A program made the translations under genes and the position numbers. This document shows positions 7,534-8,918 of a DNA stretch of 49,525 bases, in pieces. Source of the DNA: a virus (lineage: Duplodnaviria > Caudoviricetes). The first letter of the stretch is position 1; every line of letters begins with the position of its first letter. Location of the stretch: IMG/VR virus record IMGVR_UViG_3300035670_000319, positions 1 through 49,525 of that record; one strand, written 5' to 3'. Under the pieces are notes generated by a model. It was given only the letters and a program-made list of their open reading frames with translations. It did no database searches and was not told the DNA's origin.

Positions 7534-7555
7534 CGTACGGTACGATCGTGACGTG

Positions 7556-7910
7556 TGGCCCCTACGTTACAGGGGCGCTTTGAAGGATGGCGGTGGCCTG
7601 CGCGGCGACGCGGGTTCCTCGCCGGGAGTGGAACGGCTGACTGGATGCGTTCCGGGCTGAACCATCGGCCGCCATCCTTGAGGGCGAACGCGCGTCCGCT
7701 GGCGCGCACGGTGGCGCCGTAGTTGATACCGGCAAGTATCGATGAGGCGCCGCAGGTTCGACTCCTGCATTGCCATAGCCGGAGATCAGCACCGGCCGCC
7801 CTCAAATTCCGGCCTCGCTCGCTGCTTGGTCAATTGTGTGGCTGCCGCGCGCCCTAACAGTCGCGGTGATGCGAGCCGCATGGTCCCGGCGATACGGGGC
7901 GACATCGAAG
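7556..7910 (+). ncRNA. Putative structured RNA modules, 5' part of array (includes tRNA-like element)
   Basis: Long stem AAGGATGGCGG/CCGCCATCCTT, pairing TGAGGGCG/CGCCCTCA, T-arm GCAGG-TTCGACT-CCTGC followed by ATTGCCA. No credible ORF. Confidence 0.6.
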
Positions 7911-7927
7911 ACAGGAGACGCGCAGCA

Positions 7928-8173
7928 ATGCACTACAGGAACGGTCGCGAAGCGAAGAACGGGGACAAGGTCGTGCAGTTGGACTACGCCGGCAACGTCA
8001 CCGCCGTGGGCGTTCTGTACGGCGCCACGCCGGGGAACGACTACTGCAACGGGCAGATTGCGCCGATTCAGTCGGTGAACACCACCGCCTGCATGGTGGA
8101 CTGCCTGCACCTTGACGACGTGAAGGCTATGCTGGCCGAGAAGGGCTTGGACAAGCGTCCGCCGGGCAAGTAG
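7928..8173 (+). CDS. Small hypothetical protein (MHYRNGREAKNGDKVV) embedded in the RNA array
   Basis: AGGAG SD at 7913-7917, 81 aa, GC3-rich codon usage like neighbouring genes. Confidence 0.8.
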   Translation: MHYRNGREAKNGDKVVQLDYAGNVTAVGVLYGATPGNDYCNGQIAPIQSVNTTACMVDCLHLDDVKAMLAEKGLDKRPPGK

Positions 8174-8174
8174 T

Positions 8175-8741
8175 ACCCGCGCTGCCGAAAGGCATCGGGC
8201 ATTCGAGACTGCACAAAGGTCCGTCCAGTGCAGCCAGCGTGGTCCCGGTCTGGCAACGGGGCGCCTTGAAGGATGGCGGTCGCGGCACCGGCCCAAAGGC
8301 CACGGGTTGCGGTCGAAGCGGCCAACGCCGCCATCCTTGAGGGCGCAGGCTTCTCCCTGCAACGCGATAACGGGTTCGGAGAGTATCCAGACCGCGCGCA
8401 CCAGTGGCCGAGGATTCCGGCCGCCCTCAGCCAATAGCGAGCCAGGCGCTCCGTCGCGGGACGGCATCCTGGACACGCCCAGCCGGCGGTGGCGTGCACG
8501 AGAAAAACACCGGCAGCCGCTGCTCCCTCTGCTAGCTGATGAAACTCCTTGGGGAGTGAGGCGGCACCTACTTGCGGTACGTGCGCGACGAGCGTACGCT
8601 GCAGTTCTCCCTAGCCCGGGCACATTGGTCCTCCCCAACCAGACCGCACGGCCCGGGCCACTGGAGACGGTAAGAGCAGGCGCTCCTCGCAGGGCGCAGG
8701 AATGCAGACAGGGCGGCATGAGCGACCGCCCCGACCGTCTC
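8175..8741 (+). ncRNA. Putative structured RNA modules, 3' part of array
   Basis: Second copy of the same closing stems (8258-8346, 8417-8429), a GAAA tetraloop hairpin, a pseudoknot (8474-8514) and a multibranch unit closed by GAGACGGT/ACCGTCTC. Confidence 0.6.
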
Positions 8742-8771
8742 AACCCGGCCACTTGCGCCGGGTTTTTTTTT
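8742..8771 (+). terminator. Rho-independent terminator
   Basis: AACCCGGC-cacttgc-GCCGGGTT followed by a T run (T9 in total). Confidence 0.85.
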
Positions 8772-8781
8772 GCGGTACGGT
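8753..8781 (+). promoter_or_regulatory. Possible promoter for the capsid gene, overlapping the terminator
   Basis: TTGCGC-17 nt-TACGGT. Confidence 0.4.
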
Positions 8782-8918
8782 TGGCTTGACGTATGGGCGT
8801 AGACCCCAACGCACACTGATCGGCCCGCTGTGGCGGATACCCCGAATCGGATGCTGCGAAGGACACCTCGAAGCCGCAATCGAGTCCCCTTCCAATCCTT
8901 TTCGCAGGAGAGATCCTC

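Follow-up and report, generated by a model that had tools for sequence, protein, structure and literature searches.

Positions 7556 to 8771 of the window (the whole 49,525-nucleotide stretch of DNA analysed, which is the entire virus record IMGVR_UViG_3300035670_000319; Duplodnaviria, Caudoviricetes) form a mosaic of RNA modules that are found again in unrelated proteobacterial phages. The region is probably an insertion, a modular array of structured small RNAs that is likely carried on one precursor and likely cut by the host RNase III, a reading that draws on cuts mapped in analogous stems of Escherichia coli. One of its units, at 7679-7804, is a member of a widespread RNA family, here called X, that is absent from Rfam. 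An earlier note, made from the letters of the sequence alone, had described constant stems with variable payloads, which is what the X family displays, as its frame covaries and its inserts vary.

Setting of the array

The virus record is 94% complete. Its PHROGs-named genes include the terminase subunits, a head-tail adaptor in the portal position, the major head protein and tail proteins, and the genes that flank the array are head and tail genes. The 332-aa gene preceding the array has no function assigned by PHROGs, and the label "scaffold" is given to it by position only. The scaffold-capsid interval could be measured in 74 of 80 relatives of the capsid gene, where it ranges from 140 to 3389 nt; it does not exceed 223 nt in 44 of the 74, and the longer intervals hold unrelated cargo. 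Pattern searches for hairpin A, X, Proteo-phage-1 RNA or the frames of the window were negative in all 74 intervals, as was the X covariance model in the 26 long-interval loci on which it was tried. Since none of the 74 carries hairpin A, X or Proteo-phage-1 RNA, the array is an insertion in a variable slot. The modules are the following.

7556..7577, + strand: hairpin A, copy 1, with a 3' arm in competition with the outer part of stem B1
7575..7687, + strand: stem B1, arms 7575-7593 and 7669-7687, insert 7594-7667; 12-bp core, extendable to about 19 bp
7679..7804, + strand: X family member with closing stem, P2, variable insert and P3; 53.8 bits with the covariance model
7806..7880, + strand: long stem-loop module, of which 7832-7871 was found in another contig with other flanks
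7876..7901, + strand: hairpin A, copy 2, before the Shine-Dalgarno sequence 7913-7917; 22-nt exact motif in 8 viral loci
7928..8173, + strand: gene for an 81-aa member of a large phage protein family without a name (homologue search)
8175..8236, + strand: separate conserved RNA module, possibly pseudoknotted; compensatory changes, no Rfam match
8240..8263, + strand: hairpin A, copy 3 (hairpin pattern)
8261..8346, + strand: stem B2, arms 8261-8279 and 8328-8346, insert 8280-8327; fold z -5.6
8338..8429, + strand: second unit with the same 8-bp closing stem and a different interior; not X by the model
8436..8518, + strand: Proteo-phage-1 RNA (Rfam RF03044), 51.9 bits against a gathering score of 42
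8515..8741, + strand: four further predicted stem-loops; no family found
8742..8771, + strand: intrinsic terminator at the end of the array (terminator scan)

The strong terminator proposed earlier was thus recovered by the scan. A -10 box (TACGAT) had also been suggested at 7541, and it is unsupported because no sigma-70-like promoter passed the threshold in the promoter scan of the region. By eye, a promoter-like hexamer pair at 8753-8781, below the scan threshold, overlaps the terminator.

Some side observations concern the same interval in the relatives. Ahead of the capsid gene, 66 of 74 relatives have a conserved leader, made of a short repeated motif and C-rich words, that immediately follows a promoter-like site; positions 8790-8918 of the window are a diverged copy without an Rfam match. 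In locus L004 the interval contains a 3.4-kb insert with two Rfam-scored tRNAs and one ORF with an apparent resemblance to RtcB.

Several known kinds of element were considered for the array and rejected. Each repeat has just two irregular copies and no toxin or cas gene adjoins, which speaks against a type III antitoxin or a CRISPR-like array; neither ARAGORN nor Rfam calls a tRNA in the window, so that it is no tRNA or tmRNA cluster; and no hammerhead or other ribozyme is matched in Rfam.

Repeats, frames and modules

The repeats on which the idea of a recurring frame was founded are real: 7572-7597 returns at 8258-8283 (92%), 7668-7691 at 8327-8350 (92%), and an exact 13-mer lies at 7792 and 8417. 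The longest exact repeat within 7534-8790 measures 19 nt, compared with a mean of 10.3 and a maximum of 14 in 300 dinucleotide shuffles, and 13-mer repeats occur at 3 offsets, compared with a mean of 0.02 in the same shuffles. What had been taken for one frame with unrelated interiors is in both cases a two-part one. A stem B of about 19 bp, which encloses a first insert, leads with its 3' arm into the 8-bp stem that closes a second unit, so that the two stems overlap and are mutually exclusive, a property missed in the earlier note. In equilibrium folding, unit 1 keeps only the 12-bp core of stem B1 and unit 2 keeps the extended stem. That the region is almost wholly foldable is unexceptional as such, three long pieces giving z -1.6, -1.1 and -1.5; z -2.5 to -5.6 was reached by single units only, with unit ends picked by hand. 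The insert of B1 folds no better than its shuffles (z +0.6).

The hairpin-plus-junction element is confirmed at 7556, 7881 and 8240; its pattern occurs in 0 of 300 shuffles, a test that is partly circular because the pattern was written from these three copies. The middle copy does precede the Shine-Dalgarno sequence of the small gene. The 22-nt hairpin A motif is identical across phages of very different base composition (loci L212-L219), where start codons or tRNA-like RNAs follow it immediately; by eye, its copy in L214 seems to be placed between queuosine-pathway-like genes. Copies of the module at 8175-8236, in which two stems show compensatory changes, are present in L437, L439, L004/L438 and a contig of run X1. 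The 10-nt word at 8669-8678 is shared with enterobacterial B stems.

The single 81-aa gene is real, as its product has 6887 homologues with four conserved cysteines. This protein matches no Pfam or PHROG family, is predicted to form a small beta-sheet plus helix (pLDDT 81) and has a weak feature likeness to DUF7205 and YdfZ (0.86-0.87). X or hairpin A was found near its relatives in none of the 80 loci examined out of 411. The gene is a widespread cargo and has no tie to the RNA array in these loci.

A comparison with Rfam gave one family only, Proteo-phage-1 RNA at 8436-8518, which had been overlooked before; the rest of the region has no family above its gathering score. We know of no function for this RNA, which covers 83 nt of the 1.2 kb. 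It is not named in the main text of Weinberg 2017 (PMC5737381).

The X family

The X family was entered through a weak BLAST match of 7772-7805 to non-coding stretches of unrelated phages, one of them inside a tRNA cluster. A 19-nt pattern found 121 stretches in 6 of the 64 parts of the viral collection, which corresponds to about 1300 viral contigs in the whole of it. Among the 118 pattern matches with enough flank, a second conserved hairpin (P2) lies upstream in 87 distinct copies. A genome scan for the P3 hairpin returned mostly chance matches, with P2 present in 9 of 120, and these 9 together with the 87 pattern copies yielded 96 inserts, which fall into 77 clusters. Insert lengths range from 26 to 162 nt. 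The closing stem, which was not itself a selection criterion, is 94-98% paired at seven positions. In an alignment of 52 X sequences, chosen for inserts of 45-85 nt, two-sided changes were found at 7 of 7 closing-stem pairs and 4 of 5 P2 pairs, so that the covariation that the earlier note had asked homologues to show is present in the X frame. P3 and the pairs between the P2 and P3 loops are nearly invariant, partly because the search pattern fixed both. The loop-loop pairing, which is also predicted for unit 7679-7804, may form; its invariance in the alignment is partly a product of selection and no proof of it.

The window was outside the training set of the X model, and 7679-7804 matches this model with 53.8 bits (E about 4e-12), its P2 loop being a variant. 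In contrast, 8338-8429 gives no match up to E 5 and has nothing in common with X but its closing stem and a hairpin resembling P3. Canonical copies of X are without a match in Rfam. In the literature, neither X nor such arrays were found to be described, though the supplements of Weinberg 2017 and Fremin 2023 could hold X as an unnamed candidate; in the part available to us, a preprint on the Pas sRNA has no bearing on X.

X is often found among tRNA genes and in the early-left leaders of lambdoid prophages, and 1640 of 5426 complete E. coli genomes contain a match to an X-bearing stretch. In L152 and L157, X and a tRNA adjoin an array in which a different long stem frame is repeated at least three times around unrelated inserts. 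One insert type (L088, L186) is similar to 16S rRNA over 29 nt (86% to E. coli rrsB) and two near-identical inserts have a 13-nt match to 16S; an origin of the inserts from captured rRNA was rejected, as these were the only such cases among the 96 when compared with one E. coli rRNA operon.

The company of tRNA genes, the T-arm-like hairpin at 7752-7768 within the insert of unit 7679-7804 and a weak tRNA-Sec score (E 0.4) would be expected if the array were processed like a tRNA operon, by RNase P, E or Z at tRNA-like arms. The window itself holds no tRNA, however, X inserts show no enrichment of T-loop words (3 of 96 against a shuffle mean of 1.9), and the analogous cuts in E. coli are dependent on RNase III. 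Such processing, or an unprocessed array that works as one long RNA, is therefore improbable.

The two-part frame in other phages and the exchange of units

Of 94 distinct X copies, 35 are preceded by an enclosing stem whose 3' arm continues into the closing stem of X. Such a stem occurs in 0.1% of shuffles and in none of 71 offset controls; both frames of the window attain the score used for these 35, and the remaining 59 copies lack a strong upstream stem. In a P1-type phage-plasmid, three X or X-like units alternate with B-type stems behind tRNAs, and the same stretch is present in phages P1 and D6. In lambda, a B stem and then a closing stem follow tR', with a different interior, which parallels the second unit of the window. 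Exact searches for the window's own frame returned chance matches only (4 viral loci, 8 metagenome loci, a further 4, and 14 viral loci); because exact patterns miss covarying stems, they show only that the stem sequence of the window is rare.

Relatives differ by whole units at repeated joints, as seen in single contigs of metagenome DNA runs at a depth of 4-9. In one contig, 7791 is joined to 8417 across the 13-nt repeat with 625 nt deleted, a deletion that may be an assembly collapse at the repeat. Such a collapse cannot explain the replacements. Thus, a contig of run X3 has kept 7885-8264 and 8338-8428 but carries 293 other bases in place of unit B2, as well as an extra copy of the closing repeat upstream, and in a contig of this run unit B1 stands by itself between new flanks, with another hairpin of P2 type downstream. 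The insert 8288-8322 was found within a different frame in a contig of run X4, that frame being also present in L152 and L157, and the module 8192-8234 stands in another context in a contig of run X1. These contigs and the family data support the shuffling at junctions that had been proposed.

Evidence on the proposed processing by RNase III

In the dicBF region of E. coli, double cuts were mapped at 1649182/1649251 and 1649454/1649584, and they depend on RNase III (Altuvia 2018, PMC6212723, in the sections available to us). These pairs lie within a stem of B type and within the extended closing stem of a unit that resembles X only distantly (23.8 bits), and the second pair leaves a 2-nt overhang. 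RNase III sites were reportedly described by Daniels in 1988 for the lambda late region and by Faubladier in 1990 for the dicBF operon. The proposal that the units are cut from one precursor has indirect support in this way, as the mapped cuts are those of the analogous E. coli stems.

Stems B1 and B2 of the window each extend to a 19-bp duplex with one G:G mismatch, in keeping with the criterion of about 20 bp of near-continuous duplex, and these duplexes compete with hairpin A and the closing stem. RNase III cuts are predicted before 7586 and 7679 in B1, and before 8272 and 8338 in B2. With the matrix from PMC6212723, 30 of 35 family stems have their best downstream cut 7-10 nt ahead of the junction, at the start of the closing stem, compared with 33% in pair-shuffled controls; the count of 30 overstates independence because the 35 stems are partly related. 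On the same matrix, the best downstream cut lies 8 nt before the junction in both stems of the window. Their scores (-9.8 and -8.6) are within the range of real targets and not above that of random perfect 19-bp stems (-8.1 +/- 0.5). The matrix is that of E. coli, and the RNase III of the host of the window phage may differ; our implementation gave -22.6 where -23.9 was published.

A further indication comes from sRNA-17 of E. coli K1 RS218, a 193-nt RNA by RACE and northern blot (PMC7719688, in the part available to us). According to the primers given there and our alignment, it starts with a canonical X unit, which is thus expressed at the 5' end of a discrete RNA, and continues, unlike the window, with another insert and a DicF-like terminator domain. 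In L422, a homologue of sRNA-17, counting 193 nt back from the terminator leads to the first base of the closing stem, a position equivalent to the mapped dicBF cut. Its authors take the 5' end as a transcription start, and the same part of their paper describes neither the frame nor a family.

These data also bear on whether X, or the whole array, might be a cis-acting antiterminator like HK022 put, as its frequency in early-left leaders could suggest. On the contrary, in sRNA-17 a terminator at which the RNA ends follows the X unit within about 70 nt, the window array itself ends in a terminator, and no known antiterminator is matched in Rfam, and we regard this idea as very improbable.

Proposed mechanism and role

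According to the processing model that we favor, the array would be read through from the portal-scaffold operon and end at the 8742 terminator. Stem B would fold first around insert 1 and be cut by RNase III in both arms, giving RNAs of about 93 and 66 nt, and the downstream cut would free exactly the 5' arm of the closing stem of the next unit, which could then pair with its 3' partner. As a result, the new 5' end would be base-paired, and the units of ~126 and ~92 nt would become stable clamped RNAs. Hairpin A, as a competitor for the outer arm of stem B, might modulate the cutting, and units would be gained, lost and exchanged by recombination at the 13-26-nt repeats. By virtue of release and 5'-end clamping, the frames would be processing and stabilising carriers, and the most probable role of the inserts would be that of trans-acting small RNAs, by analogy with DicF.

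On the other hand, the modules might be no more than cis-acting punctuation or stabilisers of messengers, with inserts that are neutral filler subject to drift and recombination, and the array as an accumulated by-product in a tolerant slot. The dispersal of the 96 inserts over 77 unrelated clusters, the indifferent folding of insert B1, and the capsid relatives, of which 44 of 74 have a short interval and none the frames, are consistent with this explanation, which we nevertheless consider unlikely: several inserts and modules are preserved with hardly any change in different frames and phages, and most units here flank no gene to stabilise. As for more specific functions of a processed array, no support was obtained for the decoy, antitoxin-mimic or antitermination roles that had been suggested. 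A shared platform, in which an RNase III stem and a self-clamping kissing-loop X scaffold would release and display swappable payloads, some of them captured from host RNAs, as decoys or regulators against host defences, with a repertoire evolving by the exchange of cassettes, is a speculative extension that we hold to be doubtful.

Relation to known systems

Non-coding stretches of phages are mostly unannotated. The description of the region as an undescribed system is to be tempered because its modules and two-part layout recur in P1, lambda, Qin and many other phages and one module is in Rfam. The array would work like RNase III-punctuated operons and belongs to no catalogued array family. 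In rRNA operons and T7 early RNA, the RNase III stalks are long-range stems that likewise release enclosed RNAs; their cargo is fixed and, unlike here, there is no overlapping second stem to clamp the new 5' end.

Among the closest likenesses is dicBF of the Qin prophage in E. coli K-12, where RNAs of 69 and 130 nt are enclosed by long stems in phage-derived non-coding DNA; one stem is B-type, the other closes a distant X-like unit, and the cut geometry agrees with that predicted for the window. It differs in its stem sequences and in its place, the early-left operon of a lambdoid prophage as opposed to the late head operon of an unrelated podophage-like virus. Moreover, in the portions of the reports available to us, the dicBF stems are treated as single DicF processing sites and not as a cassette family (PMC6212723; bioRxiv 10.1101/2023.04.14.536235). 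The ncRNA arrays of UG27 reverse transcriptases, as far as the available text of their report goes, are also phage units of conserved structure and diverse sequence that are gained and lost, but they consist of uniform 135-167-nt units templating cDNA beside the RT (bioRxiv 10.64898/2026.09.22.753630). The units of the window are heterogeneous, and no RT-like ORF was seen in it by eye, ORFs beyond 14.4 kb having been inspected in this way only.

If the proposed processing is correct, P1, lambdoid prophages and unrelated environmental phages would share one processing-and-clamping layout for exchangeable small RNAs, and the mapped dicBF cuts and the 5' end of sRNA-17 would be cases of one design. 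The exact cut sites that it predicts could be tested in laboratory phages, and the frames would offer a natural stable scaffold for short RNAs.
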